Positions 10,243-36,564 of a stretch of DNA of 64,000 bases are shown here, in pieces; position 1 is the first letter of the stretch; each line of letters opens with the position of its first letter. The position numbers were made by a program, and so were the translations under genes. The notes under the pieces are model-generated. The model had not been told where the DNA came from. It did not search any database and saw only the letters and a list, made by a program, of their open reading frames with translations. The stretch spans positions 349,848 to 413,847 of the forward strand of contig OZ253582.1 of assembly GCA_965263085.1 (NCBI GenBank), given 5' to 3'. Origin of the DNA: Nitrospinales bacterium (GTDB lineage: Bacteria; Nitrospinota; Nitrospinia; Nitrospinales; VA-1).

Positions 10243-10249
10243 TTTCTGA

Positions 10250-18992: not shown

Positions 18993-19178
18993 ATAAATGG
19001 TAGGTATTAAACCACCCCGAAACAAAAACATACCATATTTAATCGCAAAAAAAACGACACTGAATGAACCCCTATGACTGCTCATATGGAATCTCTTATT
19101 GATACTGCACTGAAGGAAGACGTGCAAAGTGGTGACATCACCACCATGAATATTATCCCAAGGGACAATTCTGCGAGG
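18993..19178 (+). pseudogene. displaced nadC promoter/5' fragment (left copy of the island-flanking direct repeat; coding part 19074-19178)
   Basis: MTAHMESLIDTALKEDVQSGDITTMNIIPRDNSAR aligns with the nadC N-terminus at 36441 (20 of 36 residues identical by my count). It contains the 22-mer CAAAGTGGTGACATCACCACCA (19125-19146), identical to 36510-36531. The outer repeat ends are approximate. Confidence 0.75.
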
Positions 19179-19186
19179 GGGGGGGG
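19177..19186 (+). repeat. G10 homopolymer at the nadC-fragment/island junction
   Basis: Counted directly: ctgcga-GGGGGGGGGG-taag. It lies 34 nt upstream of ATG 19221 and is followed by (TACAA)x3 at 19206-19220. Confidence 0.9.
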
Positions 19187-19220
19187 TAAGGCCCATGCCC
19201 TACCATACAATACAATACAA

Positions 19221-22200
19221 ATGAAACCCTGCACGCCACCAGCAAAGAAGCCGCGCCTTTTCCGGGTTGCCTACCTGTCCCTGATCTGGCTCGCCGCAAC
19301 CATCTGCGCCCTGTTGTTCACCGCCTACCCGGCTAACGCCAGCCTGATGCTCAATACATCGGGCGACCAGAATTACACGCTTGACATGGCGATCCCCAAT
19401 CTGCAACTGCCGGAAGCGACCGGCGGCACGGGGACGCTGGACTACACTCTGACCGGGCCAGACGGCGGCGCCCTGCCGGAGGGTCTGATCTTTACCCCCG
19501 GCACACGCACGCTGTCCGGCACGCCGAGCCAGCCCGGTGCCACCACCCTGACCTACACGGTCACCGATACCAGCGATGCCGGAACGGTTACGACCTCCAC
19601 CTCCACGACCTTCACGGTCAGGGTCCACATGCTCAATACACCGGACAGCCAGGCTTACGTGTTGAACAGGGCGATCACTCTGCAACTGCCGGAAGCGGCC
19701 GGCGGCAAGGGGCCGCTGGTGTACACTCTGACCAGGCGAGGCGGCGGCGCCCTGCCGGGAGGTCTGGAGTTTGACGCCGACACACGCATACTGTCCGGCA
19801 CGCCGAGCATGAACGGTTACTTCCCCCTGACCTACACGGTCACCGATGCCAACGGTGTCAGCACGAGTGTGAACTTCCTGCTCATAGTCAGGGGCAGCGT
19901 GAAGCTGACCGCACCGCTCAACCAGAATTACACGCAGGGCATGGCGATCCCCGATCTGCAACTGCCAGCAGCGACCGACGGCACGGGGACGCGGGTGTAC
20001 ACTCTGACCGGCGTGCCGGCGGGTCTGACCTTTGACGCTGGCAAACGCAAGCTGTCCGGCACGCCGAGCGCGCTCGGTTCCACTCTCCTGACCTACACGG
20101 TCACCGATGCCAACGGTGACGAGACTAGTGTGACCTTCACGGTCACGGTCAACGCCGACCTGGCGCTCAATGCACGAGGCAACCGGAGTTACGCGCAGGG
20201 CAGGACGATCAGAGATCTGCAACTACCGGAAGCGATCGGCGGCACGGGGACGCTGGTGTACACTCTGACCGGGCCAGACGGCCTAGACGACCTGCCGGCG
20301 GGTCTGACCTTTGACGCTGGCACACGCACGCTGTCCGGCACGCCGAGCACGGTCGGTGTCACCACCCTGACCTACACGGTCACCGATACCAACAATGCCA
20401 GCACGACTGCGACCTTCACGGTCAACGTCATATTTAGTAGGGGAGGAAACCTGGGGATAGTGGAGACGGATGGCCTGGATTACGCGCAGGGCAGGCCGTT
20501 CACTCGGCAACTGTCGGAAGCGACCGGCGGCATAGGGACGCTGACCTACACTCTGACCGGGCTAGACGGCGGCCCCCTGCCGGCGGGTCTGACCTTTGAC
20601 CCCGACACACGCACGCTGTCCGGCACGCCGAGCATGACCGGTAACTTCGTCATGACCTACACGGTCACCGATACCAACGATACCATCCAGGTGTTCGGAA
20701 GGGGCATCCGTATCTCCGTCTTCTCCAACCTGAGGCTCAATACATCGGGCAACCGGGGCTATACCCAGAACACTTTGATCACCGATCTGCAACTGCCGGA
20801 AGCGACCGGCGGCTTTGGGACGCTGAGGTACACTCTGACCGGGCCAGACGGCCTGCCGATGGGTCTGACCTTTGACGCTGGCACACGCACACTGTCCGGC
20901 ACGCCGAGCACGGTCGGTGTCACCACCCTGACCTACACGGTCACCGATATCAACGATGCCTTCACGGCTATGTTCTCGAGGCGCTTCACGGTCACGGTCA
21001 ACGCCGGCCTGGCGCTCAATGCATCGGGCGACCAGAATTACACGCTTGATACGGCAATCACCGATCTGCAACTGCCGGTAGCGACCGGCGGCACGGGGAC
21101 GTTGACCTACACTCTGACCGCGCCAGGCGGCGGCCTGCCGGCGGGTCTGACCTTTGACCCCGGCACACGCACGCTGTCCGGCACGCCGGACACGGCTGGT
21201 ACCACCATCTTGACCTACATGGCCACCGATACCAGCGGTGTCGGAACGGTTACGTTCTCCACGACCTTCACGGTCAAGGTCAACGCCAGCTTGGCGCTCA
21301 GTGCATCGGGCGACCAGAATTACACGCAGGGCACAGCGATCAGCGTGCAACTGCCAGCAGCGACCGGCGGCACGATGCCGCTGACCTACACTCTGACCGG
21401 CCTGCCGGCGGGTCTGACCTTTACCCCCGGCACACGCACGCTGTCCGGCACGCCGAGCACGGCTGCTACCACCACCTTGACCTACAGGGTCACAGATGAC
21501 AACGGTGCCAGCACGAGTGTGGACTTCACGGTCACGGTCAGCGACGGCCTGACGTTCGACTCTGAACCGGCCAACCAGAATTACACGCAGGGCACGGCGA
21601 TCCCCGATCTGCAACTGCCAGTAGCGACCGGCGGCACGGAGCCACTGAGGTACACTCTGACCAGTGTGCCGGGTCTGACCTTTACCCCCGGCACACGCAT
21701 ACTGTCCGGCACGCCGGACACGGCTGCTACCACCACCCTGACCTACAGGGTCACCGATACCAACGGTGCCAGCACGAGTGTGGACTTCATGGTCACGGTC
21801 AACGCCGGCTTGGCGCTGACCGCGCCGGTCGACCAGAATTACACGCAGGGCACGGCGATCACCGATCTGCCTCTGCCGGAAGCGAGCGGAGGCACGGAGC
21901 CGCTGACCTACACTCTGACAGGGCCAGGCGACAGCGCCCTGCAGGGAGGTCTGGACTTTACCCCCGGCACACGCACGCTGTCCGGCACGCCGAGCACGCC
22001 TGCTACCACCACCCTGACCTACGAGGTCACCGATACCAACGGTGCCAGCGACAGTGTGGACTTCACCGTCATAGTCAACGCCAAACTGGCACTCGATACA
22101 CCGGACGACCAGAATTACACGCAGGACAAGGCGATCACCAATCTGGAACTGCCAGCAGCGACCGGCGGCACCGGGACGCTGACCTACACTCTGACCGGCC

Positions 22201-25200
22201 TGCCGGGAGGTCTGACCTTTAGCGGACGCACGCTGTCCGGCACGCCTGACACGGATGGTGACTTCACCCTGACCTACGAGGTCAGCGATGCCAACGGTGC
22301 CAGCACGAGTGTGGACTTCACCGTCATAGTCAACGCCAAACTGGCACTCGATACACCGGACGACCAGAATTACACGCAGGGCAGGGCGATCACCGATCTG
22401 ACTCTGCCGGCAGCGAGCGGCGGCACCGGGACGCTGACCTACACTCTGACCGGGCTAGGCGGCCTGCCGGGAGGTCTGAACTTTACCGCCGGCACACGCA
22501 CGCTATCCGGCACGCCAAGCACGCCTGGTACTACCACCTTGACCTACGAGGTCACCGATACCAACAGTGCCAGCACGACTGCGACCTTCATGGTCAAGGT
22601 CAACGCCGAACTGGGGCTCAATGCATCGGGCAACCAGAATTACACGCAGGACAGGAGGATCCCCGGTGGTCTGTTTCTGCCGGAAGCAACCGGCGGCACG
22701 GCGCCACTGACGTACACTCTGACCGCGCCAGGCGGCCTGCCGGCGGGTCTGGAATTTAACGTCAACGCACGCCTACTGTTCGGCCCGCCGAGCACGCCTG
22801 CTACCACCACCCTGACCTACACGGTCACCGATGCCAACGGTGCCAGCAAGAGTGTGGACTTCATGGTCACGGTCAACCCCGGCTTGGCGCCGCTGACCGC
22901 GCCGGCCGACCAGAATTACACGCAGGGCAGGGCGATCACCGATCTGACTCTGCCGGCAGCGACCGGCGGCACGGAGCCATTGACGTACACTCTGACCGGC
23001 CTGCCGCCGGGTCTGACCTTTGACACACGCACGCTGTCCGGCACGCCGGACACGCCTGGTACCTTTGACCTGACCTACGAGGTCACCGATGCCAACGGTG
23101 CCAGCACGGATGTGACCTTCATGGTCACGGTCAACGAGGGCTTGGCTCTGACCGCATCGAGCAACCAGAATTACACGCTTAACACGGCGATCCCCGCTCT
23201 GACTCTGCCGGCAGCGGACGGCGGCACCGGGACGCTGACCTACACTCTGACCGGGCCAGGCGGCCTGCCGGGAGGTCTGGACTTTAGCGGACGCACGCTG
23301 TCCGGCACACCGGACACGGCTGGTGACTTCACCCTGACCTACGAGGTCATGGATGCCAACGGTGCCAGCACGACTGCGACCTTCACGGTTAGTGTCAGCG
23401 ACGGCTTGGCACTCAGTGCACGAGGCGACCAGAATTACACGCAGGACAAGGCGATCACCGATCTGGAACTGCCGATAGCGAGCGGCGGCACGGCGCCACT
23501 GACCTACACTCTGACCAGTGTGCCGGGTCTGGACTTTAACGCCAACACACGCATACTGTCCGGCACACCGAGCACGGCTGATACCTTCGACCTGACCTAC
23601 GAGGTCACCGATGCCAACGGTGCCAGCACGACTGCGACCTTCACGGTCATAGTCAGCGACGGCTTGGCACTCAGTGCACGAGGCGACCAGAATTACACGC
23701 TTGATACGGCGATCACCGATCTGGAACTGCCGGAAGCGAGCGGCGGCACCGGGACGCTGACCTACACTCTGACCGGGCCAGGCGACAGCGCCCTGCCGGG
23801 AGGTCTGACCTTTAGCGGACGCATACTGTCCGGCACACCGGACACGGCTGGTGACTTCACCCTGACCTACACGGTCACCGATACCAACAATGCCACCACG
23901 ACTGCGACCTTCACGGTCATAGTCAGCGATGGCTTGGCACTCAGTGCACGAGGCGACCAGAATTACACGCAGGACAAGGCGATCACCGATCTGGAACTGC
24001 CGATAGCGAGCGGCGGCACGGCGCCACTGACCTACACTCTGACCAGTGTGCCGGGTCTGGACTTTAACGCCAACACACGCACGCTGTCCGGCACACCGAG
24101 CACGGCTGATACCTTCGACCTGACCTACGAGGTCACCGATGCCAACGGTGCCAGCACGACTGCGACCTTCACGGTCATAGTCAGCGACGGCTTGGCACTC
24201 AGTGCACGAGGCGACCAGAATTACACGCTTAACACGGCGATCACCGGTCTGGAACTGCCGGAAGCGGACGGCGGCACCGGGACGCTGACCTACACTCTGA
24301 CCGGGCCAGGCGGCCTGCCGGGAGGTCTGGACTTTAGCGGACGCACGCTGTCCGGCACACCGGACACGGCTGGTGACTTCACCCTGACCTACACGGTCAC
24401 CGATACCAACGATGCCACCACGACTGCGACCTTCACGGTCATAGTCAGCGACGGCTTGGCACTCAGTGCACGAGGCGACCAGAATTACACGCAGGACAAG
24501 GCGATCACCGATCTGGAACTGCCGATAGCGAGCGGCGGCACGGCGCCACTGACCTACACTCTGACCAGTGTGCCGGGTCTGGACTTTAACGCCAACACAC
24601 GCACGCTGTCCGGCACACCGAGCACGGCTGATACCTTCGACCTGACCTACGAGGTCACCGATGCCAACGGTGCCAGCACGACTGCGACCTTCACGGTCAT
24701 AGTCAGCGACGGCTTGGCGCTGACCGCATCGGGCAACCAGAATTACACGCTTGATACGGAGATCACCGCTCTGGAACTGCCGGTAGCGACCGGCGGCACC
24801 GGGACGCGGACCTACACTCTGACCGGGCCAAGCGGCCTGCCGGGAGGTCTGGACTTTGACGTCGACACACGCATACTGTCCGGCACGCCGACCGAGGTCG
24901 GTACCACCACCCTGACCTACGAGGTCATGGATGAAAACGGTGCCAGCACGAGTGTGGACTTCACGGTCACGGTCAACGCCGGCTTGACGCTGACCGCATC
25001 GGGCAACCAGAATTACACGCAGGGCACGGCGATCACCGATCTGCCACTGCCAGCAGCGACCGGCGGCACGATGCCGCTGACCTACACTCTGACCAGTGTG
25101 CCGGGTCTGGACTTTAACGCCGGCACACGCACGCTGTCCGGCACGCCGAGCACCGCCACTAGTACCACCACCCTGACCTACGAGGTCACCGATGCCAACA

Positions 25201-26327
25201 ATGCCAGCACGAGTGTGGACTTCACGGTCACGGTCAACGCCGGCTTGACGCTGACCGCATCGGGCAACCAGAATTACACGCTTGATACGGCGATCACCGG
25301 TCTGGAACTGCCGGTAGCGACCGGCGGCACGATGCCGCTGACCTACACTCTGACCGGGCCAAGCGGCGGCAACCTACCGGCGGGTCTGACCTTTAGCGGA
25401 CGCACGCTGTCCGGCACGCCGACCGAGGTCGGTACCACCACCCTGACCTACGAGGTCATGGATGAAAACGGTGCCAGCACGAGTGTGGACTTCACGGTCA
25501 CGGTCAACGCCGGCTTGGCACTCAGTGCACGAGGCGACCAGAATTACACAGAGGACACGGCGATCCCCGATCTGGAACTGCCGGAAGCGAGCGGCGGCAC
25601 GGAGCCACTGGTGTACACTCTGACAGGGCCAGGCGACAGCGCCCTGCCGGGAGGTCTGACCTTTAGCGGACGCACGCTGTCCGGCACACCGACCGAGGTC
25701 GGTACCACCACCCTGACCTACGAGGTCATGGATGAAAACGGTGCCAGCACGAGTGTGGACTTCACGGTCACGGTCAACGCCGGCTTGGCACTCAGTGCAC
25801 GAGGCGACCAGAATTACACAGAGGACACGGCGATCCCCGATCTGGAACTGCCGGAAGCGAGCGGCGGCACGGAGCCACTGGTGTACACTCTGACAGGGCC
25901 AGGCGACAGCGCCCTGCCGGGAGGTCTGACCTTTAGCGGACGCACGCTGTCCGGCACACCGGACACGGCTGCTACCACCATCTTGACCTACACGGTCATG
26001 GATGACAACGGTGCCAGCACGAGTGTGGACTTCACGGTCACGGTCAACGAGGGCTTGGCGCTGACCGCATCGGGCGACCAGAATTACACGCAGGGCACGG
26101 CGATCACCAATCTGGAACTGCCAGCAGCGACCGGCGGCACGGCGCTGCTGGTGTACACTCTGACCAGTGTGCCGGGTCTGGACTTTGACCCCGGCACACG
26201 CACGCTGTCCGGCACGCCGAGCACGCCTGCTACCACCACCCTGACCTACATGGTCAGCGATGCCAACGGTGCCAGCACGACTGCGACCTTCACCGTCATA
26301 GTCAGCGACGGCTTAGCGGCGCGCTGA
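19221..26327 (+). CDS. giant autotransporter adhesin, N-terminal segment (signal peptide + 26 He_PIG/cadherin-like Ig modules); frame lost at 26.3 kb
   Basis: The track ORF is 19074-26327. I place the start at ATG 19221 because MKPCTPPAKKPRLFRVAYLSLIWLAATICALLFTAYPANA/S is a canonical Sec signal peptide (basic n-region, hydrophobic core, AxA site). The modules carry the signature LP.A.GG.G.L.Y.L..LP.GL.F...R.LSGTP.....LTY.V.D.NG.S...F.V.V. The ORF ends at a TGA created by 5 extra nt in a linker (gcttAGCGGCgcgcTGAccg versus canonical gcttggcgctgaccg) and has no barrel of its own. Confidence 0.8.
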   Translation: MKPCTPPAKKPRLFRVAYLSLIWLAATICALLFTAYPANASLMLNTSGDQNYTLDMAIPNLQLPEATGGTGTLDYTLTGPDGGALPEGLIFTPGTRTLSGTPSQPGATTLTYTVTDTSDAGTVTTSTSTTFTVRVHMLNTPDSQAYVLNRAITLQLPEAAGGKGPLVYTLTRRGGGALPGGLEFDADTRILSGTPSMNGYFPLTYTVTDANGVSTSVNFLLIVRGSVKLTAPLNQNYTQGMAIPDLQLPAATDGTGTRVYTLTGVPAGLTFDAGKRKLSGTPSALGSTLLTYTVTDANGDETSVTFTVTVNADLALNARGNRSYAQGRTIRDLQLPEAIGGTGTLVYTLTGPDGLDDLPAGLTFDAGTRTLSGTPSTVGVTTLTYTVTDTNNASTTATFTVNVIFSRGGNLGIVETDGLDYAQGRPFTRQLSEATGGIGTLTYTLTGLDGGPLPAGLTFDPDTRTLSGTPSMTGNFVMTYTVTDTNDTIQVFGRGIRISVFSNLRLNTSGNRGYTQNTLITDLQLPEATGGFGTLRYTLTGPDGLPMGLTFDAGTRTLSGTPSTVGVTTLTYTVTDINDAFTAMFSRRFTVTVNAGLALNASGDQNYTLDTAITDLQLPVATGGTGTLTYTLTAPGGGLPAGLTFDPGTRTLSGTPDTAGTTILTYMATDTSGVGTVTFSTTFTVKVNASLALSASGDQNYTQGTAISVQLPAATGGTMPLTYTLTGLPAGLTFTPGTRTLSGTPSTAATTTLTYRVTDDNGASTSVDFTVTVSDGLTFDSEPANQNYTQGTAIPDLQLPVATGGTEPLRYTLTSVPGLTFTPGTRILSGTPDTAATTTLTYRVTDTNGASTSVDFMVTVNAGLALTAPVDQNYTQGTAITDLPLPEASGGTEPLTYTLTGPGDSALQGGLDFTPGTRTLSGTPSTPATTTLTYEVTDTNGASDSVDFTVIVNAKLALDTPDDQNYTQDKAITNLELPAATGGTGTLTYTLTGLPGGLTFSGRTLSGTPDTDGDFTLTYEVSDANGASTSVDFTVIVNAKLALDTPDDQNYTQGRAITDLTLPAASGGTGTLTYTLTGLGGLPGGLNFTAGTRTLSGTPSTPGTTTLTYEVTDTNSASTTATFMVKVNAELGLNASGNQNYTQDRRIPGGLFLPEATGGTAPLTYTLTAPGGLPAGLEFNVNARLLFGPPSTPATTTLTYTVTDANGASKSVDFMVTVNPGLAPLTAPADQNYTQGRAITDLTLPAATGGTEPLTYTLTGLPPGLTFDTRTLSGTPDTPGTFDLTYEVTDANGASTDVTFMVTVNEGLALTASSNQNYTLNTAIPALTLPAADGGTGTLTYTLTGPGGLPGGLDFSGRTLSGTPDTAGDFTLTYEVMDANGASTTATFTVSVSDGLALSARGDQNYTQDKAITDLELPIASGGTAPLTYTLTSVPGLDFNANTRILSGTPSTADTFDLTYEVTDANGASTTATFTVIVSDGLALSARGDQNYTLDTAITDLELPEASGGTGTLTYTLTGPGDSALPGGLTFSGRILSGTPDTAGDFTLTYTVTDTNNATTTATFTVIVSDGLALSARGDQNYTQDKAITDLELPIASGGTAPLTYTLTSVPGLDFNANTRTLSGTPSTADTFDLTYEVTDANGASTTATFTVIVSDGLALSARGDQNYTLNTAITGLELPEADGGTGTLTYTLTGPGGLPGGLDFSGRTLSGTPDTAGDFTLTYTVTDTNDATTTATFTVIVSDGLALSARGDQNYTQDKAITDLELPIASGGTAPLTYTLTSVPGLDFNANTRTLSGTPSTADTFDLTYEVTDANGASTTATFTVIVSDGLALTASGNQNYTLDTEITALELPVATGGTGTRTYTLTGPSGLPGGLDFDVDTRILSGTPTEVGTTTLTYEVMDENGASTSVDFTVTVNAGLTLTASGNQNYTQGTAITDLPLPAATGGTMPLTYTLTSVPGLDFNAGTRTLSGTPSTATSTTTLTYEVTDANNASTSVDFTVTVNAGLTLTASGNQNYTLDTAITGLELPVATGGTMPLTYTLTGPSGGNLPAGLTFSGRTLSGTPTEVGTTTLTYEVMDENGASTSVDFTVTVNAGLALSARGDQNYTEDTAIPDLELPEASGGTEPLVYTLTGPGDSALPGGLTFSGRTLSGTPTEVGTTTLTYEVMDENGASTSVDFTVTVNAGLALSARGDQNYTEDTAIPDLELPEASGGTEPLVYTLTGPGDSALPGGLTFSGRTLSGTPDTAATTILTYTVMDDNGASTSVDFTVTVNEGLALTASGDQNYTQGTAITNLELPAATGGTALLVYTLTSVPGLDFDPGTRTLSGTPSTPATTTLTYMVSDANGASTTATFTVIVSDGLAAR

Positions 26328-27477
26328 CCGCATCGGGCAACCAGAATTACACGCTTGATACGGCGATCACCGATCTGGAACTGCCGGAAGCGAGCGGCGG
26401 CACGGAGCCACTGACCTACACTCTGACCAGTGTGCCGGGTCTGACCTTTACCCCCGGCACACGCACGCTGTCCGGCACGCCGCCAGAGTCATAGTCCGAC
26501 GGCTTGGCGCACGCAACCAGAATTACAGATCACCACGGACCTACACTCTGCCAGCACCCTCACGGTCACGGTACACGGTCATGGATGACAACGGTGCCAG
26601 CACGAGTGTGGACTTCACGGTCACGGTCAACGACGGCTTGGCACTCAGTGCACGAGGCGACCAGAATTACACGCAGGACAAGGCGATCACCGATCTGCAA
26701 CTGCCGATAGCGAGCGGCGACCGACCAGCACGGGCTTTACCCCCGGCACACGCCACTGACCTACACTCTGACCAGTGTGCCGGGTCTGGACTTTGACCCC
26801 GGCACACGCACGCTGTCCGGCACGCCGACCGAGGTCGGTACCACCACCCTGACCTACGAGGTCATGGATGAAAACGGTGCCAGCACGAGTGTGGACTTCA
26901 CGGTCACGGTCAACGCCGGCTTGGCACTCAGTGCACGAGGCGACCAGAATTACACAGAGGACACGGCGATCCCCGATCTGGAACTGCCGGAAGCGAGCGG
27001 CGGCACGGAGCCACTGACCTACACTCTGACCAGTGTGCCGGGTCTGGACTTTGACGCCGACACACGCATACTGTCCGGCACACCGAGCACGCCTGCTACC
27101 ACCACCCTGACCTACATGGTCAGCGATGCCAACGGTGCCAGCACGACTGCGACCTTCACCGTCATAGTCAGCGACGGCTTGGCGCTGACCGCATCGGGCA
27201 ACCAGAATTACACAGATCACCGCTCTGGACAAGGCGATCACCGACTCTGCCAACTGCCGGAAGCGACGCACGCTGTCCGGCACGCCGAGTACCACCACCC
27301 TGACCTACAGGTCATGGATGAAAACGGTGCCACACGAGTGACTTCACGGTCACGGTCAACGCCGGCGCACTCAGTGCACGAGGCGACCAGAATTACACAG
27401 AGGACACGGCGATCCCCGATCTGGAACTGCCGGAAGCGAGCGGCGGCACGGAGCCACTGACCTACACTCTGACCAGT
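26311..27477 (+). other. scrambled-repeat zone interrupting the adhesin frame (assembly collapse or genuine disruption)
   Basis: Four patches (26314-26323, 26471-26580, 26716-26760, 27215-27375) are shredded or misplaced module pieces. They are separated by intact canonical modules, and ORF 26777-27460 reads through two of those. Confidence 0.8.
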
Positions 27478-30400
27478 GTGCCGGGTCTGGACTTTGACGC
27501 CGACACACGCATACTGTCCGGCACACCGAGCACGCCTGCTACCACCACCCTGACCTACATGGTCAGCGATGCCAACGGTGCCAGCACGACTGCGACCTTC
27601 ACCGTCATAGTCAGCGACGGCTTGGCGCTGACCGCATCGGGCAACCAGAATTACACGCAGGACAAGGCGATCCCCGATCTGCAACTGCCGGAAGCGAGCG
27701 GCGGCACGGAGCCACTGACCTACACTCTGACCAGTGTGCCGGGTCTGGACTTTGACGCCGACACACGCATACTGTCCGGCACACCGAGCACGCCTGCTAC
27801 CACCACCCTGACCTACATGGTCAGCGATGCCAACGGTGCCAGCACGACTGCGACCTTCACCGTCATAGTCAGCGACGGCTTGGCGCTGACCGCATCGGGC
27901 AACCAGAATTACACAGAGGACAAGGCGATCCCCGATCTGCAACTGCCGATAGCGACCGGAGGCACGGGGACGCTGACCTACACTCTGACCGGGCCAAGCG
28001 GCGGCAACCTACCGGCGGGTCTGACCTTTAGCGGACGCACGCTGTCCGGCACGCCGACCGAGGTCGGTACCACCACCCTGACCTACGAGGTCATGGATGA
28101 AAACGGTGCCAGCACGAGTGTGGACTTCACGGTCACGGTCAACGCCGGCTTGGCACTCAGTGCACGAGGCGACCAGAATTACACAGAGGACACGGCGATC
28201 CCCGATCTGGAACTGCCGGAAGCGAGCGGCGGCACGGAGCCACTGACCTACACTCTGACCAGTGTGCCGGGTCTGGACTTTGACGCCGACACACGCATAC
28301 TGTCCGGCACACCGAGCACGCCTGCTACCACCACCCTGACCTACATGGTCAGCGATGCCAACGGTGCCAGCACGACTGCGACCTTCACCGTCATAGTCAG
28401 CGACGGCTTGGCGCTGACCGCATCGGGCAACCAGAATTACACGCAGGACAAGGCGATCCCCGATCTGCAACTGCCGATAGCGACCGGAGGCACGGGGACG
28501 CTGACCTACACTCTGACCAGTGTGCCGGGTCTGGACTTTGACCCCGGCACACGCACGCTGTCCGGCACGCCGAGCACGCCTGCTACCACCACCCTGACCT
28601 ACATGGTCAGCGATGCCAACGGTGCCAGCACGACTGCGACCTTCACCGTCATAGTCAGCGACGGCTTGGCGCTGACCGCATCGGGCAACCAGAATTACAC
28701 GCAGGACAAGGCGATCCCCGATCTGGAACTGCCGGTAGCGACCGGCGGCACGGAGCCACTGACCTACACTCTGACCAGTGTGCCGGGTCTGGACTTTAAC
28801 CCCGGCACACGCATACTGTCCGGCACACCGAGCACGGCTGATACCACTACCCTGACCTACACGGTCACCGATACCAACGGTGCCAGCGAGAATGCGACCT
28901 TCATGGTCACGGTCAACGCCAGCTTAGCGCTGACCGCGCCGGTCGACCAGAATTACACGCTTGATACGGAGATCACCGGTCTGACTCTGCCGGAAGCGGA
29001 CGGCGGCACGGCGCCGCTGACCTACACTCTGACCAGCGTGCCGGGTCTGAACTTTAACGCCAACACACGCACGCTGTCCGGCACGCCGAGCACGGCTGAT
29101 ACCACTACCCTGACCTACACGGTCACCGATACCAACGGTGCCAGCGAGAATGCGACCTTCATGGTCACGGTCAACGCCAGCTTAGCGCTGACCGCGCCGG
29201 TCGACCAGAATTACACGCTTGATACGGAGATCACCGGTCTGACTCTGCCGGAAGCGGACGGCGGCACGGCGCCGCTGACCTACACTCTGACCAGCGTGCC
29301 GGGTCTGAACTTTAACGCCAACACACGCACGCTGTCCGGCACGCCGAGCACGGCTGATACCACTACCCTGACCTACACGGTCACCGATACCAACGGGGCC
29401 AGCGAGAATGCGACCTTCACGGTCACGGTCAACGAGGGCTTGGCGCTGACCGCATCGGGCAACCAGAATTACACAGAGGGCAGGGTGATCACCGCTCTGC
29501 AACTGCCGGTAGCGACCGGCGGCACGGGAACGCTGGTGTACACTCTGACAGGGCCAAGCGGCGGCAACCTGCCGGCGGGTCTGACCTTTACCCCTGGCAC
29601 ACGCACGCTGTCCGGCACGCCGAGCACGGCTGATACCACTACCCTGACCTACACGGTCACCGATACCAACGGTGCCAGCGAGAATGCGACCTTCATGGTC
29701 ACGGTCAACGCCAGCTTAGCGCTGACCGCGCCGGTCGACCAGAATTACACGCTTGATACGGAGATCACCGGTCTGACTCTGCCGGAAGCGGACGGCGGCA
29801 CCGGGACGCTGACCTACACTCTGACCAGCGTGCCGGGTCTGACCTTTACCCCCGGCACACGCACGCTGTCCGGCACGCCGAGCACGGCTGATACCACTAC
29901 CCTGACCTACACGGTCACCGATACCAACGGTGCCAGCGAGAATGCGACCTTCATGGTCACGGTCAACGCCAGCTTAGCGCTGACCGCGCCGGTCGACCAG
30001 AATTACACGCTTGATACGGAGATCACCGGTCTGACTCTGCCGGAAGCGGACGGCGGCACGGCGCCGCTGACCTACACTCTGACCAGCGTGCCGGGTCTGA
30101 ACTTTAACGCCAACACACGCACGCTGTCCGGCACGCCGAGCACGGCTGATACCACTACCCTGACCTACACGGTCACCGATACCAACGGTGCCAGCGAGAA
30201 TGCGACCTTCATGGTCACGGTCAACGCCAGCTTAGCGCTGACCGCGCCGGTCGACCAGAATTACACGCTTGATACGGAGATCACCGGTCTGACTCTGCCG
30301 GAAGCGGACGGCGGCACGGCGCCGCTGACCTACACTCTGACCAGCGTGCCGGGTCTGAACTTTAACGCCAACACACGCACGCTGTCCGGCACGCCGAGCA

Positions 30401-33400
30401 CGGCTGATACCACTACCCTGACCTACACGGTCACCGATACCAACGGGGCCAGCGAGAATGCGACCTTCACGGTCACGGTCAACGAGGGCTTGGCGCTGAC
30501 CGCATCGGGCAACCAGAATTACACAGAGGGCAGGGTGATCACCGCTCTGCAACTGCCGGTAGCGACCGGCGGCACGGGAACGCTGGTGTACACTCTGACA
30601 GGGCCAAGCGGCGGCAACCTGCCGGCGGGTCTGACCTTTACCCCTGGCACACGCACGCTGTCCGGCACGCCGAGCACGGCTGATACCACTACCCTGACCT
30701 ACACGGTCACCGATACCAACGGTGCCAGCGAGAATGCGACCTTCATGGTCACGGTCAACGCCAGCTTAGCGCTGACCGCGCCGGTCGACCAGAATTACAC
30801 AGAGGGCAGGGTGATCACCGCTCTGGAACTGCCGGTAGCGACCGGCGGCACCGGGACGCTGACCTACACTCTGACCAGCGTGCCGGGTCTGAACTTTAAC
30901 GCCAACACACGCACGCTGTCCGGCACGCCGAGCACGGCTGATACCACTACCCTGACCTACACGGTCACCGATACCAACGGTGCCAGCGAGAATGCGACCT
31001 TCATGGTCACGGTCAACGCCAGCTTAGCGCTGACCGCGCCGGTCGACCAGAATTACACAGAGGGCAGGGTGATCACCGCTCTGGAACTGCCGGTAGCGAC
31101 CGGCGGCACCGGGACGCTGACCTACACTCTGACCAGCGTGCCGGGTCTGACCTTTACCCCCGGCACACGCACGCTGTCCGGCACGCCGAGCACGGCTGAT
31201 ACCACTACCCTGACCTACACGGTCACCGATACCAACGGTGCCAGCGAGAATGCGACCTTCATGGTCACGGTCAACGCCAGCTTAGCGCTGACCGCGCCGG
31301 TCGACCAGAATTACACGCTTGATACGGAGATCACCGGTCTGACTCTGCCGGAAGCGGACGGCGGCACGGCGCCGCTGACCTACACTCTGACCAGCGTGCC
31401 GGGTCTGAACTTTAACGCCAACACACGCACGCTGTCCGGCACGCCGAGCACGGCTGATACCACTACCCTGACCTACACGGTCACCGATACCAACGGGGCC
31501 AGCGAGAATGCGACCTTCACGGTCACGGTCAACGAGGGCTTGGCGCTGACCGCATCGGGCAACCAGAATTACACAGAGGGCAGGGTGATCACCGCTCTGC
31601 AACTGCCGGTAGCGACCGGCGGCACCGGGACGCTGACCTACACTCTGACCAGCGTGCCGGGTCTGACCTTTACCCCCGGCACACGCACGCTGTCCGGCAC
31701 GCCGAGCACGGCTGATACCACTACCCTGACCTACACGGTCACCGATACCAACGGTGCCAGCGAGAATGCGACCTTCATGGTCACGGTCAACGCCAGCTTA
31801 GCGCTGACCGCGCCGGTCGACCAGAATTACACGCTTGATACGGAGATCACCGGTCTGACTCTGCCGGAAGCGGACGGCGGCACGGCGCCGCTGACCTACA
31901 CTCTGACCAGCGTGCCGGGTCTGAACTTTAACGCCAACACACGCACGCTGTCCGGCACGCCGAGCACGGCTGATACCACTACCCTGACCTACACGGTCAC
32001 CGATACCAACGGGGCCAGCGAGAATGCGACCTTCACGGTCACGGTCAACGAGGGCTTGGCGCTGACCGCATCGGGCAACCAGAATTACACAGAGGGCAGG
32101 GTGATCACCGCTCTGGAACTGCCGGTAGCGACCGGCGGCACCGGGACGCTGACCTACACTCTGACCAGCGTGCCGGGTCTGACCTTTAACGCCAACACAC
32201 GCACGCTGTCCGGCACGCCGAGCACGGCTGATACCACTACCCTGACCTACACGGTCACCGATACCAACGGTGCCAGCGAGAATGCGACCTTCATGGTCAC
32301 GGTCAACGAGGGCTTGGCGCTGACCGCGCCGGTCGACCAGAATTACACGCTTGATACGGAGATCACCGGTCTGACTCTGCCGGAAGCGGACGGCGGCACG
32401 GCGCCGCTGACCTACACTCTGACCAGCGTGCCGGGTCTGAACTTTAACGCCAACACACGCACGCTGTCCGGCACGCCGAGCACGGCTGATACCACTACCC
32501 TGACCTACACGGTCACCGATACCAACGGGGCCAGCGAGAATGCGACCTTCACGGTCACGGTCAACGAGGGCTTGGCGCTGACCGCATCGGGCAACCAGAA
32601 TTACACAGAGGGCAGGGTGATCACCGCTCTGGAACTGCCGGTAGCGACCGGCGGCACCGGGACGCTGACCTACACTCTGACCAGCGTGCCGGGTCTGACC
32701 TTTAACGCCAACACACGCACGCTGTCCGGCACGCCGAGCACGGCTGATACCACTACCCTGACCTACGAGGTCATGGATGACAACGGGGCCAGCACGAGTG
32801 TGGACTTCACGGTCACGGTCAACGAGGGCTTGGCGCTGACCGCATCGGGCAACCAGAATTACACGCTTGATACGGAGATCGACGATCTGCAACTGCCGGA
32901 AGCGAGCGGCGGCACGGGAACGCTGGTGTACACTCTGACAGGGCCAAGCGGCGGCAACCTGCCGGCGGGTCTGACCTTTGACACACGCACACTGTCCGGC
33001 ACGCCGGACACGGCTGGTACCACCAACCTGACCTACAGGGTCACCGATGCCAACGATGCCACCACGACTGCGACCTTCACCGTCATAGTCAGCGACGGCT
33101 TGGCGCTGACCGCATCCGGCAACCAGAATTACACGCTTGGCACGGCGATCACCAATCTGGAACTGCCAGCAGCGACCGGCGGCACGGCGCCACTGACGTA
33201 CACTCTGACCAGTGTGCCGGGTCTGGACTTTGACCCCGGCACACGCACGCTGTCCGGCACGCCGAGCACGCCTGCTACCACCACCCTGACCTACATGGTC
33301 AGCGATGCCAACGGTGCCAGCACGACTGCGACCTTCACCGTCATAGTCAGCGACGGCTTGGCGCTGACCGCATCGGGCAACCAGAATTACACGCTTAATA

Positions 33401-36339
33401 CGGCGATCACCAATCTGGAACTGCCGGAAGCGAGCGGCGGCACGGGAACGCTGGTGTACACTCTGACAGGGCCAAGCGGCGGCAACCTGCCGGCGGGTCT
33501 GACCTTTGACACACGCACACTGTCCGGCACGCCGGACACGGCTGGTACCACCAACCTGACCTACAGGGTCACCGATGCCAACGATGCCACCACGACTGCG
33601 ACCTTCACCGTCATAGTCAGCGACGGCTTGGCGCTGACCGCATCCGGCAACCAGAATTACACGCTTGATACGGCGATCAGCAATCTGCAACTGCCAGCAG
33701 CGACCGGTGGCACGGGGACGTTGACCTACACTCTGACCAATGTGCCGGGTCTGGACTTTAACGTCGACACACGCATACTGTCCGGCACGCCGGACACGGC
33801 TGGTACCACCACCCTGACCTACGAGGTCACCGATACCAACGGTGCCAGCACGACTGCGACCTTCACCGTCATAGTCAGCGACGGCTTGGCGCTGACCGCG
33901 CCGGCCAACCAGACTTACACAGAGGACAGGGCGATCAACAATCTGCAACTGCTGGCAGCGACCGGTGGCACGGGGACGTTGACCTACACTCTGACCAATG
34001 TGCCGGGTCTGGACTTTAACGTCGACACACGCATACTGTCCGGCACGCCGGACACGGCTGGTACCACCACCCTGACCTACGAGGTCATGGATGAAAACGG
34101 TGCCAGCACGAATGCGACCTTCACCGTCATAGTCAACGACAGCTTGGCGCTGACCGCGCCGGTCGACCAGAATTACACGCTTGATACGGCGATCACCGAT
34201 CTGCAACTGCCGATAGCGACTGGCGGCACCGGGACGCTGACCTACACTCTGACCAATGTGCCGGGTCTGACCTTTACCCCTGGCACACGCACGCTGTCCG
34301 GCACGCCGGACACGGCTGGTACCACCACCCTGACCTACAGGGTCACCGATACCAACGGTGCCAGCACGAGTGTGACCTTCACGGTTAGTGTCAGCGAGGG
34401 CTTGGCGCTGACCGCATCGGGCAACCAGAATTACACAGAGGGCAGGGCGATCACCGATCTGCAACTGCTGGCAGCGACCGGTGGCACCGGGACGTTGACG
34501 TACACTCTGACCAGTGTGCCGGGTCTGGACTTTAACGCCAACACACGCATACTGTCCGGCACGCCAAGCACGGCTGGTACCACCACCCTGACCTACAGGG
34601 TCACCGATGACAACGGTGCCAGCACGAGTGTGGACTTCATGGTCACGGTCAACGCCGGCTTGACGCTCGATACACCGGCCAACCAGAATTACACGCTTGA
34701 CACGGAGATCCCCGATCTGCCACTGCCGGAAGCGACCGGCGGCACGGGGACGTTGACGTACACTCTGACCGGGCCAAGCGGCCTGCAGGGAGGTCTGACC
34801 GTGTCAAACGACGACACCCTGCCGGGAGGTCTGACCTTTACCGCCGGCACACACACGCTGTCCGGCACGCCGGACACGGCTGGTACCACCACCTTGACCT
34901 ACACGGTCACCGGTGCCAACGGTGCCAGCACGAATGTGACCTTCACGGTCACGGTATCCGACAATACGGACGAGGGGTTTGCCGACCTCAATACCTTGAT
35001 CCTGCCGGAAATGGCGCGGGCCATAGCCGACCAGAAGGTGAGCGCGATAACACAACGTATTGCTAAGACCATGAGCGGTGGCAGTACCCGGTCCGTCACT
35101 ATTGCCGGGCAGCCCACATTGGCCGAGGCGGCATCTGCCCACGGCCAGGCCATCGCCGATGGCACGCTGAGTCTTAAGGATCTGCTGAACAACTCTGACT
35201 TTGTCCTGCCGCTGAATGATGCCAGCGGTACGGACAGCGGAGCCTTATGGGGCGGGGGCAGCTACCGCAGCTTCGAAGGTTCCGGCGGGGAAGATGTGGA
35301 CTTTGACGGAGACCTGTTCAGCGCCTATCTGGGACTGGACACTCAACCGCGTGACGACCTGCTGATCGGCCTGACGCTATCCTGGAGCCAGAGCAATCTT
35401 GGCTACCAGAGGAGTGAACTCGAACGCAAGGGGGATTATAAGCTGGACCTCACCAGTATTAATCCTTATGTAGGCTGGGAAGTGCTGGCCGGAAAACTGG
35501 ATCTGTGGGCCACTGCGGGCTACGGCTGGGGTGACCTTAAGATCACTGATGACGGGTCGGACCAGGCATCGAGCTATGTTGAAGCGTGGGACGTGGCTGT
35601 GGGCGGTAATATCCAGTTGTCGCAGGCGACGAGCCCGGTCCTGTTCCGGCTCAAGAGTTCAGCCTTGCTGACCGAGATGGATGTGGAGGGCAGCGATGAT
35701 ATTGCGGGGCTGGGAGTGGATGCCAGCCTGTTGCGCATGGTCCTGGAAGGAACGGATAAACATCTGCTGGCCAACGGGGCTTATGTGGAGCCGAGCCTGG
35801 AGGTCGGAGTGCGGTATAACGGCGGCGACGGCGAGACTGGTTTCGAGGCCGAGTTGGGTGCCGGTTTCCGCTACATCAATCCGATCGCCGGTCTGACCCT
35901 GGAAGGCAGGGCACGCACCCTGGTGGGACGGGACAATTATAATGCATGGGGCCTTTCCGGCCTGATTCTTCTGGAGCAGGGCAGCAACGGGCGGGGGCTG
36001 TCGTTCAGCCTGAGTCCCGGTTACGGTAATACCAACAGCGGTACGGAAAAAATATGGAAGGATGGCCTGCGTGACGAGATCAGCGGTGACCAGGGTTACA
36101 GCCTGCGGCTGGACACCCGGATTGGTTACGGGCTGACCGCTCCCGGTGTGCGGGGACTGCTGACTCCTTACAGCGAAATGACCTTCGGCGGCTCTGACAG
36201 GAGTTACCGCCTGGGGATAAGATGGGAACTTGATTCGTTGTTTGACCTGAACCTGACCGGTGAGCGTATAGAGAGCAACAGCAGCACCGCTGACCGCGCC
36301 ATTGACCGCGCCATGCTGAAAGGCAATATCCGGTTTTAA
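27478..36339 (+). CDS. giant autotransporter adhesin, C-terminal segment (29 modules + linker + beta-barrel translocator)
   Basis: 2953-aa track ORF. Its GTG start falls inside a module (..SVPGLDFDAD..) and there is no signal peptide. After module 29 come a helical linker (ADLNTLILPEMARAIADQKVSAITQRIAK) and a barrel-like domain (LWGGGSYRSFEG, DLFSAYLGLD, alternating-hydrophobic strands) ending ...LKGNIRF. Confidence 0.85.
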   Translation: MPGLDFDADTRILSGTPSTPATTTLTYMVSDANGASTTATFTVIVSDGLALTASGNQNYTQDKAIPDLQLPEASGGTEPLTYTLTSVPGLDFDADTRILSGTPSTPATTTLTYMVSDANGASTTATFTVIVSDGLALTASGNQNYTEDKAIPDLQLPIATGGTGTLTYTLTGPSGGNLPAGLTFSGRTLSGTPTEVGTTTLTYEVMDENGASTSVDFTVTVNAGLALSARGDQNYTEDTAIPDLELPEASGGTEPLTYTLTSVPGLDFDADTRILSGTPSTPATTTLTYMVSDANGASTTATFTVIVSDGLALTASGNQNYTQDKAIPDLQLPIATGGTGTLTYTLTSVPGLDFDPGTRTLSGTPSTPATTTLTYMVSDANGASTTATFTVIVSDGLALTASGNQNYTQDKAIPDLELPVATGGTEPLTYTLTSVPGLDFNPGTRILSGTPSTADTTTLTYTVTDTNGASENATFMVTVNASLALTAPVDQNYTLDTEITGLTLPEADGGTAPLTYTLTSVPGLNFNANTRTLSGTPSTADTTTLTYTVTDTNGASENATFMVTVNASLALTAPVDQNYTLDTEITGLTLPEADGGTAPLTYTLTSVPGLNFNANTRTLSGTPSTADTTTLTYTVTDTNGASENATFTVTVNEGLALTASGNQNYTEGRVITALQLPVATGGTGTLVYTLTGPSGGNLPAGLTFTPGTRTLSGTPSTADTTTLTYTVTDTNGASENATFMVTVNASLALTAPVDQNYTLDTEITGLTLPEADGGTGTLTYTLTSVPGLTFTPGTRTLSGTPSTADTTTLTYTVTDTNGASENATFMVTVNASLALTAPVDQNYTLDTEITGLTLPEADGGTAPLTYTLTSVPGLNFNANTRTLSGTPSTADTTTLTYTVTDTNGASENATFMVTVNASLALTAPVDQNYTLDTEITGLTLPEADGGTAPLTYTLTSVPGLNFNANTRTLSGTPSTADTTTLTYTVTDTNGASENATFTVTVNEGLALTASGNQNYTEGRVITALQLPVATGGTGTLVYTLTGPSGGNLPAGLTFTPGTRTLSGTPSTADTTTLTYTVTDTNGASENATFMVTVNASLALTAPVDQNYTEGRVITALELPVATGGTGTLTYTLTSVPGLNFNANTRTLSGTPSTADTTTLTYTVTDTNGASENATFMVTVNASLALTAPVDQNYTEGRVITALELPVATGGTGTLTYTLTSVPGLTFTPGTRTLSGTPSTADTTTLTYTVTDTNGASENATFMVTVNASLALTAPVDQNYTLDTEITGLTLPEADGGTAPLTYTLTSVPGLNFNANTRTLSGTPSTADTTTLTYTVTDTNGASENATFTVTVNEGLALTASGNQNYTEGRVITALQLPVATGGTGTLTYTLTSVPGLTFTPGTRTLSGTPSTADTTTLTYTVTDTNGASENATFMVTVNASLALTAPVDQNYTLDTEITGLTLPEADGGTAPLTYTLTSVPGLNFNANTRTLSGTPSTADTTTLTYTVTDTNGASENATFTVTVNEGLALTASGNQNYTEGRVITALELPVATGGTGTLTYTLTSVPGLTFNANTRTLSGTPSTADTTTLTYTVTDTNGASENATFMVTVNEGLALTAPVDQNYTLDTEITGLTLPEADGGTAPLTYTLTSVPGLNFNANTRTLSGTPSTADTTTLTYTVTDTNGASENATFTVTVNEGLALTASGNQNYTEGRVITALELPVATGGTGTLTYTLTSVPGLTFNANTRTLSGTPSTADTTTLTYEVMDDNGASTSVDFTVTVNEGLALTASGNQNYTLDTEIDDLQLPEASGGTGTLVYTLTGPSGGNLPAGLTFDTRTLSGTPDTAGTTNLTYRVTDANDATTTATFTVIVSDGLALTASGNQNYTLGTAITNLELPAATGGTAPLTYTLTSVPGLDFDPGTRTLSGTPSTPATTTLTYMVSDANGASTTATFTVIVSDGLALTASGNQNYTLNTAITNLELPEASGGTGTLVYTLTGPSGGNLPAGLTFDTRTLSGTPDTAGTTNLTYRVTDANDATTTATFTVIVSDGLALTASGNQNYTLDTAISNLQLPAATGGTGTLTYTLTNVPGLDFNVDTRILSGTPDTAGTTTLTYEVTDTNGASTTATFTVIVSDGLALTAPANQTYTEDRAINNLQLLAATGGTGTLTYTLTNVPGLDFNVDTRILSGTPDTAGTTTLTYEVMDENGASTNATFTVIVNDSLALTAPVDQNYTLDTAITDLQLPIATGGTGTLTYTLTNVPGLTFTPGTRTLSGTPDTAGTTTLTYRVTDTNGASTSVTFTVSVSEGLALTASGNQNYTEGRAITDLQLLAATGGTGTLTYTLTSVPGLDFNANTRILSGTPSTAGTTTLTYRVTDDNGASTSVDFMVTVNAGLTLDTPANQNYTLDTEIPDLPLPEATGGTGTLTYTLTGPSGLQGGLTVSNDDTLPGGLTFTAGTHTLSGTPDTAGTTTLTYTVTGANGASTNVTFTVTVSDNTDEGFADLNTLILPEMARAIADQKVSAITQRIAKTMSGGSTRSVTIAGQPTLAEAASAHGQAIADGTLSLKDLLNNSDFVLPLNDASGTDSGALWGGGSYRSFEGSGGEDVDFDGDLFSAYLGLDTQPRDDLLIGLTLSWSQSNLGYQRSELERKGDYKLDLTSINPYVGWEVLAGKLDLWATAGYGWGDLKITDDGSDQASSYVEAWDVAVGGNIQLSQATSPVLFRLKSSALLTEMDVEGSDDIAGLGVDASLLRMVLEGTDKHLLANGAYVEPSLEVGVRYNGGDGETGFEAELGAGFRYINPIAGLTLEGRARTLVGRDNYNAWGLSGLILLEQGSNGRGLSFSLSPGYGNTNSGTEKIWKDGLRDEISGDQGYSLRLDTRIGYGLTAPGVRGLLTPYSEMTFGGSDRSYRLGIRWELDSLFDLNLTGERIESNSSTADRAIDRAMLKGNIRF
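28657..32820 (+). repeat. block of 16 near-identical modules organised as 1050-nt (4-module) and ~516-nt (2-module) higher-order repeats
   Basis: Identical 106-aa antisense ORFs at 29182, 30232 and 31282 show three identical 321-nt stretches at exact 1050-nt spacing. Module boundaries were mapped by hand (258+258+276+258 nt). Confidence 0.9.
34957..36339 (+). other. autotransporter linker plus C-terminal beta-barrel domain of the adhesin
   Basis: This non-repetitive ~460-aa tail starts SDNTDEGF. It is Gly/aromatic-rich with amphipathic strands and a terminal Phe, as is typical for outer-membrane beta-barrels. Confidence 0.75.
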
Positions 36340-36393
36340 CAGGAGAGGGGCCAGGATCGCATTAGCTATTCTGTTTCTTCTTTGCTGTGAGGC

Positions 36394-36564
36394 TGATAAA
36401 ATGGTTAAAGTTTTAACACCATTTTGACCGCGAAAACAAGATGCCGAATAAACCTCTCATGGCTGTAGATATTGAGTCCCTCATCATCACCACCCTGGAA
36501 GAAGACATCCAAAGTGGTGACATCACCACCAGGAGCATTATACCTGAGGGACAACTCCGCGAGG
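36394..36564 (+). repeat. right copy of the island-flanking direct repeat (nadC promoter/5' end)
   Basis: About 75-80% identical by eye to 18993-19178. The perfect 22-mer core lies at 36510-36531. The outer repeat ends are approximate. Confidence 0.7.
36398..36425. promoter_or_regulatory. 28-nt AT-rich imperfect palindrome just upstream of nadC (operator or weak terminator candidate)
   Basis: AAAATGGT-taaagttttaac-ACCATTTT, with an inner TTAAA/TTTAA pairing. It lies 15 nt before ATG 36441 and about 60 nt after the adhesin stop. Confidence 0.3.

Follow-up and report, generated by a model that had tools for sequence, protein, structure and literature searches.

A giant autotransporter-type adhesin gene between gdh and nadC of a Nitrospinales bacterium: a probable ancient insertion without an integrase

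We analyzed a stretch of 64,000 nucleotides of contig OZ253582.1 (assembly GCA_965263085.1, positions 349,848-413,847, forward strand; hereafter the window) from a Nitrospinales bacterium (GTDB lineage Bacteria; Nitrospinota; Nitrospinia; Nitrospinales; VA-1). Between the divergently transcribed genes gdh (Glu/Leu/Phe/Val dehydrogenase) and nadC (quinolinate phosphoribosyltransferase), the window carries one very large gene for an autotransporter-like adhesin (19221-36339, plus strand), which is rich in guanine plus cytosine (GC) and is bracketed by two diverged copies of the same short host segment. An earlier note, made from the letters of the window, had described this island and read its borders as the attL and attR sites left by a site-specific recombination event. 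We favor, as somewhat better than an even proposition, an ancient horizontal insertion of the giant gene between gdh and nadC that did not depend on an integrase. A gene from a high-GC donor would have entered between the two divergent genes of a Nitrospinaceae ancestor with approximately 44% GC, and the event would have doubled a host segment of approximately 210 bp, the left copy remaining with gdh and the right copy keeping nadC whole. Because the segment was duplicated, both housekeeping genes would have kept their upstream regions. The host lineage is marine Nitrospinaceae, with a background of approximately 44% GC in the flanks of the island; nadC orthologues at 80-87% identity bear Nitrospinae or Nitrospinaceae names, and the GTDB loci found with gdh all belong to Nitrospinaceae or to Nitrospina metagenome-assembled genomes. 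The Nitrospinaceae are known mainly for nitrite oxidation.

The duplicated unit spans roughly 18966-19178 on the left and 36352-36563 on the right, in direct orientation, and runs from the gdh start codon ('GCAT') through the whole gdh-nadC intergenic region to codon 35 of nadC; a BLAST comparison of the upstream flank with the downstream flank recovers it with E = 9.5e-19. On the left side, gdh is intact (17722-18969, minus strand; Pfam PF00208 and PF02812), and exactly the same protein is encoded on L001, a sister-strain contig that covers the left junction and matches the window at 99.8% identity across 11.3 kb of left flank. The left copy of the intergenic region (IG_L, 18966-19073, plus strand) comprises the sequence upstream of gdh together with the former upstream block of nadC. 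It can be aligned with the one intergenic region that the relatives L004, L011, L013, and L014 possess, and it does not differ from L001 at any position. It leads into nadC' (19074-19178, plus strand), an orphan nadC 5' end of 35 codons. On the right side, a junction remnant (36340-36351, plus strand), recognized by comparison with the related loci L008, L002, and L018, is followed by the right intergenic copy (IG_R, 36352-36458, plus strand), which starts with the 'GCAT' remnant of the gdh start codon, is 92-94% identical to its counterparts in L002 and L018, and forms the upstream region of an intact nadC (36459-37295, plus strand; Pfam PF01729 and PF02749). The earlier note was correct in placing an orphan nadC 5' end, together with the former upstream region, on the left and an intact nadC on the right.

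The same note had reported a repeat of the nadC 5' region, and here the similarity stands (79/105 nt match between 19074-19178 and 36459-36563, or 75% over 35 codons), whereas the extent does not: the repeat covers approximately 210 bp, with the gdh start and the full spacer, rather than approximately 105 bp. Similarity was also said to reach into the upstream untranslated DNA, and in fact the whole intergenic region aligns, at approximately 53-56% identity. For the encoded peptides, we counted 19/35 identical residues, close to the 20 of 36 given previously; the last residues of that alignment fall away because the left copy has a frameshift, a 1-nt deletion after ...ATTAT (near 19155) that puts the downstream peptide out of frame while the DNA is still alignable. 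The nadC start had been placed at 36441. This gene has two in-frame ATGs, of which 36459 is the homologous start, equivalent to 19074 in the orphan, and 36441 is an upstream alternative whose counterpart in the left copy is out of frame with the orphan open reading frame (ORF). IG_L keeps a middle segment of approximately 25 nt that is absent from the right copy; this spacer segment and the residues MTAD... and xTAL are ancestral states that the left copy retains and that are gone from the right copies of all clade-mates, so that of the two copies the left one looks older.

The composition of the island is foreign to the window. The jump in GC content, counted by hand in the earlier note, is borne out by computation: 1-kb windows have a GC content of 0.59-0.65 from 19 to 36 kb and of 0.34-0.51 elsewhere in the window (0.63 overall versus 0.44 in the flanks). 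GC at third codon positions (GC3) is 0.78-0.79 in the repeats of the adhesin gene, 0.80 in its putative signal peptide, and 0.67-0.73 in its nonrepetitive C-terminal domain, versus 0.40-0.51 in eight flank genes. The synonymous codon choice of the island is also unlike that of the flanks, and the correlation of tetranucleotide usage is 0.86-0.94 between pieces of the flanks, near 0 between flanks and repeats, and 0.36-0.50 between flanks and the C-terminal barrel. The closest homologues of the barrel (69-74% amino acid identity) come from other Nitrospinae genomes, where they occupy unrelated loci and are GC-rich single-gene islets too (0.575 versus 0.43 and 0.61 versus 0.49); autotransporter adhesin genes thus recur in this form in Nitrospinaceae. 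Distant homologues (42-61% amino acid identity) are found in contigs of 60-73% GC, where the GC content of the gene equals that of the genome. In three of these loci (L015, L016, and L017), gene GC is 0.65-0.73 and flank GC 0.59-0.70; GC3 is 0.82 in L017 (61% amino acid identity) and 0.78 in L015, and DDE transposases lie directly upstream of the homologue in L016 and L017. The foreign composition, the empty sites described below, and the high-GC homologues support the horizontal arrival proposed earlier and fit a high-GC donor. A GC3 of 0.70-0.78, down from a donor-like 0.8-0.9, would fit partial amelioration, and the composition of the island is still far from that of the host despite a synonymous divergence (dS) of approximately 0.65 in nadC among lineages that share the insertion. 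Five other loci of this autotransporter family were searched for flanking repeats, and none turned up. The paralogue islets at L009 10001-12040 and L010 8422-11212 have neither flanking repeats nor mobility genes.

In relatives, the site is empty. At L004-L007 and L011-L014 (the latter being four GTDB Nitrospinaceae representatives), gdh is the divergent neighbor of a single nadC, approximately 90-110 nt away, and the flanking synteny is that of the window; this is the arrangement that the earlier note had predicted. L004-L007 encode an identical nadC protein and L012 matches L004, so that these loci amount to approximately five distinct lineages. The segment of approximately 210 bp is present once in these relatives and twice in the window, and both window copies align to their single intergenic region; a contiguous target segment was duplicated directly. 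The other side of gdh is variable too, since approximately 3.4 kb lie between gdh and hemC in L011, L013, and L014 (11242-14650), whereas the two genes are adjacent in the window and in L004.

Both junctions recur in other assemblies. The left one is reproduced, with sequence differences, in L001, and the right one (adhesin stop, IG_R, nadC) is reproduced at approximately 98% identity in L008 (ENA ERZ26695902 ctg119904_7.37x_l), a contig of only 7x coverage that carries frameshifts. Among close relatives, the left copy is known from L001 and L008 only. Because junctions with nucleotide differences of their own are seen in L001, L008, and L018, a chimeric join, which would have undone the interpretation in the earlier note, is excluded. 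On the one hand, a poly-G tract marks the left junction, and the zone 26310-27480 does show the assembly to be imperfect; on the other hand, GC-rich paralogues lie within a circular 2.43-Mb Nitrospinae contig at 1543x coverage. A related possibility is that the gene is ancestral and was lost from the 'empty' relatives by recombination between the repeats, and a deletion between 210-bp repeats would indeed leave a clean site. However, the site is empty in every outgroup lineage, even in the most distant, L014, and ancestral presence would therefore call for multiple precise losses; moreover, GC3 matches that of the high-GC homologues. We regard both an assembly chimera and ancestral presence as extremely improbable.

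The right junction dates the insertion. The contig of L002 (GCA_001542995.1) starts with CGGTTTTAAC, which corresponds to the last adhesin codons, and continues with the same right side as the window. L018, a 2.68-Mb genome that belongs to the 90% nadC cluster of L002, and L019 have the gene order hemC, an autotransporter gene orthologous to the adhesin gene, repeats resembling miniature inverted-repeat transposable elements (MITEs), and 'GCAT'-IG_R-nadC. Their autotransporter barrel is 78.5% identical to that of the window at the nucleotide level and has the same ending, ...ATCCGGTTTTAA; the 'GCAT'-IG_R-nadC arrangement of L018 is 93.6% identical to the one in the window. Because the right junction is common to the window and the L018/L002 lineages, the insertion predates their split, which for nadC corresponds to a dS of 0.65 between the window and L002. 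Over that time, a neutral orphan and a selected right copy would, by our own calculation, be expected to retain approximately 68% identity, and the observed 75% is approximately 1.7 standard deviations higher. Since this is near the neutral expectation, the divergence between the copies requires no second, element-borne source. By distance, the window, L018, L003, and L004 form almost a star, and a crude distance-based bootstrap grouped the island-bearing lineages as monophyletic in only 18% of its replicates.

The right junction of the window is no longer the original one, because part of it was deleted between 11-nt direct repeats, AGGAGAG(G/A)GGC (36340-36358): a 137-nt spacer that follows the adhesin stop in L008 (11563-11700) is missing from the window and partly present in L002. 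In relatives, the junction contains either these 137 nt (L008) or MITE-like repeats (L002 and L018). Arrays of such repeats lie upstream of nadC in L002 (1-430), L003 (9130-9900), and L018 (9575-9915), at the position of the adhesin-IG_R junction of the window; example sequences are ...GATTCTTCAC..GTTCAGAATGACAAGAAA..GTTTGTCATCC... and ...CTCATGAGGGGAGGCAAGGCGTAGCCGCGGAGGGG....

How the gene entered, we infer from this anatomy. In the route that we favor, recombination would have duplicated the target: a circular DNA with the segment on it would have integrated by a Campbell-type single crossover, or else the gene would have been inserted into one copy of a tandem duplication. Afterwards, the orphan would have drifted, accumulating substitutions and the frameshift, while the right copy stayed under selection, giving the present identity of 75% in the coding part and approximately 55% in the spacer. 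Like Campbell-type insertion-duplication, the case combines foreign DNA that lacks an element recombinase with a direct duplication of the homologous segment. Homology-facilitated illegitimate recombination, an established route that was reportedly described during natural transformation by de Vries and Wackernagel and by Prudhomme et al. in 2002 (both cited in PMC2884548), likewise works without an element recombinase and leaves one homologous and one illegitimate joint. Unlike in those systems, neither the circular intermediate nor the donor was observed here, and the anatomy alone speaks for the route. In its overall form, the case fits the integrase-free, repeat-flanked variable segments of bacterial genomes and the horizontally acquired autotransporter adhesins. 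With genomic islets (integrase-free variable segments), it shares a single cargo gene, the lack of mobility genes, direct repeats at the base, and presence or absence among relatives; it differs in that the repeat is long (approximately 210 bp) and old (75%/55% identity) and comprises a full divergent promoter region plus a gene start, and in that the cargo is 17 kb. Direct repeats flank 10-18% of small integrase-free variable segments (PMC2884548).

Several observations weigh against an insertion followed by simple drift in place. A target duplication of 210 bp has no routine bacterial mechanism. The ratio of nonsynonymous to synonymous divergence (dN/dS) between the left and right copies over 26 codons is approximately 0.16, a very noisy value, and hints that part of the copy divergence arose while both were functional genes. 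Within the repeat, a run of 22 identities is modestly improbable given 79/106 matches (P = 0.014-0.018 by column shuffling, or approximately 0.015), although this probability was computed before allowing for the fact that those codons are the most conserved ones. Both window copies have GAC in this run, where L002, L003, L018, and L004 have GAT, as if a short gene conversion, or else a crossover, had taken place there. The window and L001 are 99.8% identical up to 19072 and then diverge by approximately 5% in nadC' and approximately 14% by 19500-19850; the jump falls at the nadC' start codon, with 6 differences in 75 nt versus 0 in the adjacent 103-nt spacer. The orphan and the adhesin 5' end seem to recombine or diversify as a block, for which simple neutral drift in place is insufficient. 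In the second copy of the module in L008 (7x coverage), the deletion that fuses nadC' to the adhesin gene begins at the end of the 22-mer. Finally, the lack of integrases and transposases applies to the island and to window positions 1-52 kb, the range that was annotated with Pfam, and is limited to that stretch.

The run of 22 identities was the centerpiece of the earlier interpretation. We confirmed that the 22-mer CAAAGTGGTGACATCACCACCA is perfect at 19125-19146 and 36510-36531 (plus strand), 17,385 bp apart, and that no further match exists in the window when up to two mismatches are tolerated; shuffled sequences contained none. A site-specific recombinase acting at this 22-bp core, on an element that brought a replacement nadC 5' end, would have left the two copies as attL and attR of an element that has decayed or was never autonomous. 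The direct repeats with their modestly improbable perfect stretch, a near-palindrome within it (TGGTGA-CA-TCACCA), the deletion endpoint at the edge of the 22-mer in L008 copy 2, and the existence of empty sites count in favor of such a history. However, no stretch is more conserved across all nadC orthologues than the 22-mer (17-20/22 identical), whose codons specify QSGDITT, and the bases conserved in all orthologues follow from the GDITT codons. The palindrome is perfect (GGTGATATCACC) in L002, L003, and L018, though L003 has no island. In L001, otherwise 99.8% identical, the left 22-mer matches at 21/22 positions (a C-to-T mismatch at 19145), and the divergence between the window and L001 begins to the left of the core. 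Nor does the identical stretch lie at a boundary between host and element: homology continues beyond it on both sides in both copies, for 32 nt on the island side of the left copy and for approximately 150 nt on the other side, up to the repeat limits at approximately 18966/36352 and 19178/36563. Among carriers, the stretch is no more conserved than expected from the conservation of the target gene.

What the core model takes for an arm of the element is Nitrospinaceae gdh-nadC spacer DNA: because the right copy carries this lineage-specific spacer together with the gdh start codon, it is host-lineage DNA and not DNA of the GC-rich donor. No recombinase was found in the island, as the earlier note had already remarked for integrases and transposases, or within 17-19 kb on either side, and Pfam annotation of the L001 left flank, which was covered as well, returned housekeeping genes and repeat proteins only. 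No tRNA or Rfam match lies at the island borders, the only two tRNAs being at 5.6 and 8.8 kb. An exact-pattern search for the 22-mer in viral contigs (IMG/VR) gave 0 matches, as did an exact-pattern scan of metagenome contigs for the adhesin start and the left nadC'; when the nadC'-adhesin N-terminus served as a protein query, the L008 fragment was the only match. The absence of flanking repeats at the five other loci of the family also speaks against mobility of this kind. Prophage e14, which sits in icd of E. coli, leaves a diverged icd fragment, the element itself carrying a replacement gene end. As with such elements, one side of the insert in the window holds a diverged, displaced piece of the target gene and the other side the gene intact. 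The likeness is only superficial: an integrase is lacking, the repeat extends past the identical stretch, the 'replacement' copy includes the gdh start codon and comes from the host lineage, and the core varies between close strains. Judged by these comparisons, the 22-mer is the slowest-evolving codon block of nadC and not a crossover site, possibly refreshed once by a short gene conversion, and the attL/attR interpretation, which we cannot uphold, is very improbable. For genome scans, the case is a caution that a short perfect match in diverged repeats can mimic an att core and prove to be a conserved codon block.

L008 presents the module in a second context. Its positions 6774-13000 hold two tandem units, each made up of the 3' end of a ferredoxin gene, a 205-nt gdh 5' fragment (from window 18764), the spacer, nadC', and the adhesin gene. 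The trailing 137-nt spacer of the first unit, IG_R, the first 500 nt of nadC (to window 36836), and then a proC fragment lie between the units, and nadC' of the second unit is joined in frame to codon 2 of the adhesin gene. At its 7x coverage, this contig shows that the module is prone to segmental rearrangement, and the module, host fragments included, seems to have been copied to another context. One might therefore imagine a cassette driven by RecA only, in which repeat, adhesin gene, and repeat loop out as a circle with one repeat and re-enter related genomes by a homologous single crossover at the 22 nt, no other stretch being usable between partners that are 75% identical. The topology would be the same as that of an insertion-duplication, and separate recombination of nadC' with the adhesin 5' end between the window and L001, the GAC state of both window cores, and the second, tandem context in L008 would all be accommodated. 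Against this, 22 nt is at the lower limit for exchange by RecA; a distant lineage has the right junction by vertical descent; the L008 breakpoints, at window 18764 and 36836, are outside the repeats; and no circular junction was observed. Such a cassette is improbable in our estimation.

A further alternative starts from the present state of L018. The adhesin gene would first have taken the place of gdh, of which nothing but the start codon, next to IG_R, was left; the window lineage would later have regained gdh, the spacer, and 35 nadC codons from another Nitrospinaceae, by recombination anchored in hemC with an illegitimate end, so that the two copies stem from different lineages. Relatives that have the right junction or the nadC type in common with the window (L018, L019, and L003) lack gdh, L003 having only MITE-like repeats between hemC and nadC and no island, and the gdh start codon is exactly where the right copy starts, which is what a replacement of gdh would leave. 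The divergence of the left copy is mostly synonymous or conservative (dN 0.22, dS 1.37), and its states match those of relatives outside the clade (MTAD as in L011 and L013). A sliding comparison of identity across hemA-hemC for a recombination break gave a weak hint only: within the final 250 nt of hemC, 31 sites of the window are shared with L004 versus 17 with L018, the reverse of the remaining region (173 versus 124). However, this signal comes from one bin of 13 and could be a change specific to L018, and gdh is not a phylogenetic outlier, with a dS of 1.0 to L004 versus 0.76-1.37 for other flank genes. The adhesin 5' end of L018, unlike that of the window, is low in GC and remodeled, which points to secondary deletion rather than to an ancestral state. 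For this reason, and because gdh is missing there, we suppose that the L018/L003 branch later lost gdh, IG_L, nadC', and the adhesin 5' end by deletion. Replacement with re-acquisition is rather unlikely, in our view; it is as integrase-free as insertion-duplication and hard to separate from it, and insertion-duplication is the one favored.

The inserted gene would have approximately 5,706 codons if continuous, and it was assigned to the autotransporter-like adhesins from its He_PIG repeats, the spacing of these repeats, PF03797, and AlphaFold2 and Foldseek results. The putative signal peptide (19221-19340, plus strand) is read by eye from the N-terminus MKPCTPPAKKPRLFRVAYLSLIWLAATICALLFTAYPANA, in which n-, h-, and c-regions are discernible. 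The He_PIG domain (Pfam PF05345) was detected with E = 4.5e-50, and there are approximately 59 such repeats in total, 26 plus 29 of them intact (86-95 residues) and approximately four damaged. The predicted C-terminal helix and beta-barrel (34957-36336, plus strand) end in ...GNIRF. The autotransporter beta-domain PF03797 matches the C-terminal 460 residues (E = 2.6e-8, 34.4 bits with a cutoff of 26), aligning to the first half of the model only, and a 500-residue query that included more repeat sequence gave no match; most homologues of the adhesin carry PF03797. In the AlphaFold2 model of the C-terminal part (predicted local distance difference score 80, predicted template-modeling score 0.75), a 33-residue helix is predicted to precede approximately 18 strands over approximately 380 residues. 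The best Foldseek matches in the PDB are EstA, BrkA, EspP, AIDA-I, and NalP, with a template-modeling score of only approximately 0.5 on target length and with larger barrels intermixed; a profile search of the barrel against PDB sequences returned nothing. The putative signal peptide, the long repeat passenger (He_PIG), the predicted alpha-helical linker, and the predicted C-terminal barrel with its terminal Phe follow one another as in type Va autotransporters, whereas the classical barrel of that type has approximately 270 residues and 12 strands, fewer than predicted here. The product is probably a secreted adhesin anchored in the outer membrane.

That the island holds a single gene, as the earlier note stated, stands with the reservation that in the window the gene reads as two ORFs (19074/19221-26327 and 27478-36339). 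They are separated by a garbled zone (26310-27480, plus strand), where comparison with intact repeats reveals many small indels, partial repeat units, and 18-28 gap openings per kb; the remaining approximately 16 kb are in frame, and 26806-27105 is 100% identical to 28035-28334. The zone reads as a consensus or polishing artefact at a spot of variable repeat number, or else as a strain-specific lesion. We prefer the former because the gene of the sister strain L001 is open for at least 4,426 codons.

Immediately upstream of the adhesin gene there is now the orphan nadC start, with the ATG and the conserved upstream block of nadC still in place; this orphaned upstream region probably drives transcription of the adhesin gene. 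A G10 tract at the left junction (19177-19186, plus strand) is the only G or C homopolymer of at least 8 nt in the 64 kb. It is G9 in L001 and G18 in L008 copy 1, lengths that are unreliable in long-read assemblies. Strain comparison also shows (ATACA)3 directly before the adhesin ATG in the window (19205-19219, plus strand) and two copies of this unit in L001 and L008. Depending on the frame after the poly-G tract, the orphan ORF meets an early stop, ends at a stop that overlaps the adhesin ATG, or is fused in frame: it ends at the overlapping TGA in L001 and in L008 copy 1 and is in frame with the adhesin gene in the window and, by deletion, in L008 copy 2, a pattern in four copies that has no statistical significance. 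Surface proteins of Neisseria, Haemophilus, and Campylobacter are encoded at contingency loci in which homopolymer tracts cause phase variation. By analogy, the orphan nadC start might be a captured expression module in which the poly-G tract sets a phase switch of three states (translationally coupled, fused with an extended signal peptide, or stopped early); from sequence alone, this is a distinctly doubtful idea. A tract of G9-G18 upstream of an adhesin start, with a length that varies between strains, resembles the contingency loci; unlike there, it sits in an orphan leader ORF and not in the adhesin ORF or a defined promoter, and its lengths come from long-read assemblies, one of them at 7x. 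If the idea is true, phase-variable surface proteins would exist in a group of marine nitrite oxidizers. A scan of both junctions for the sigma-70 promoter consensus found no promoter-like sites, and a terminator scan of both gave two weak hairpins (18802-18819 in gdh and 19016-18999 on the minus strand); both scans are uninformative. Likewise, a Shine-Dalgarno-like motif precedes approximately 40% of the genes here, and its absence before the adhesin ATG says nothing.

The insertion represents a known kind of event in a clean and datable form. It shows a lone, very large foreign gene settling between divergent housekeeping genes without silencing either of them, their shared promoter region having been doubled. 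Literature searches on autotransporters and symbiosis in Nitrospinae and on the L002 accession found nothing. Outside the island, the flanks encode eukaryote-like repeat and surface proteins (leucine-rich repeat, Sel1, and Lcl C-terminal domain) at 2194-3399, 11155-11595, 37715-38140, and 39076-39618, which are conserved in relatives and hint at a host- or particle-associated lifestyle.

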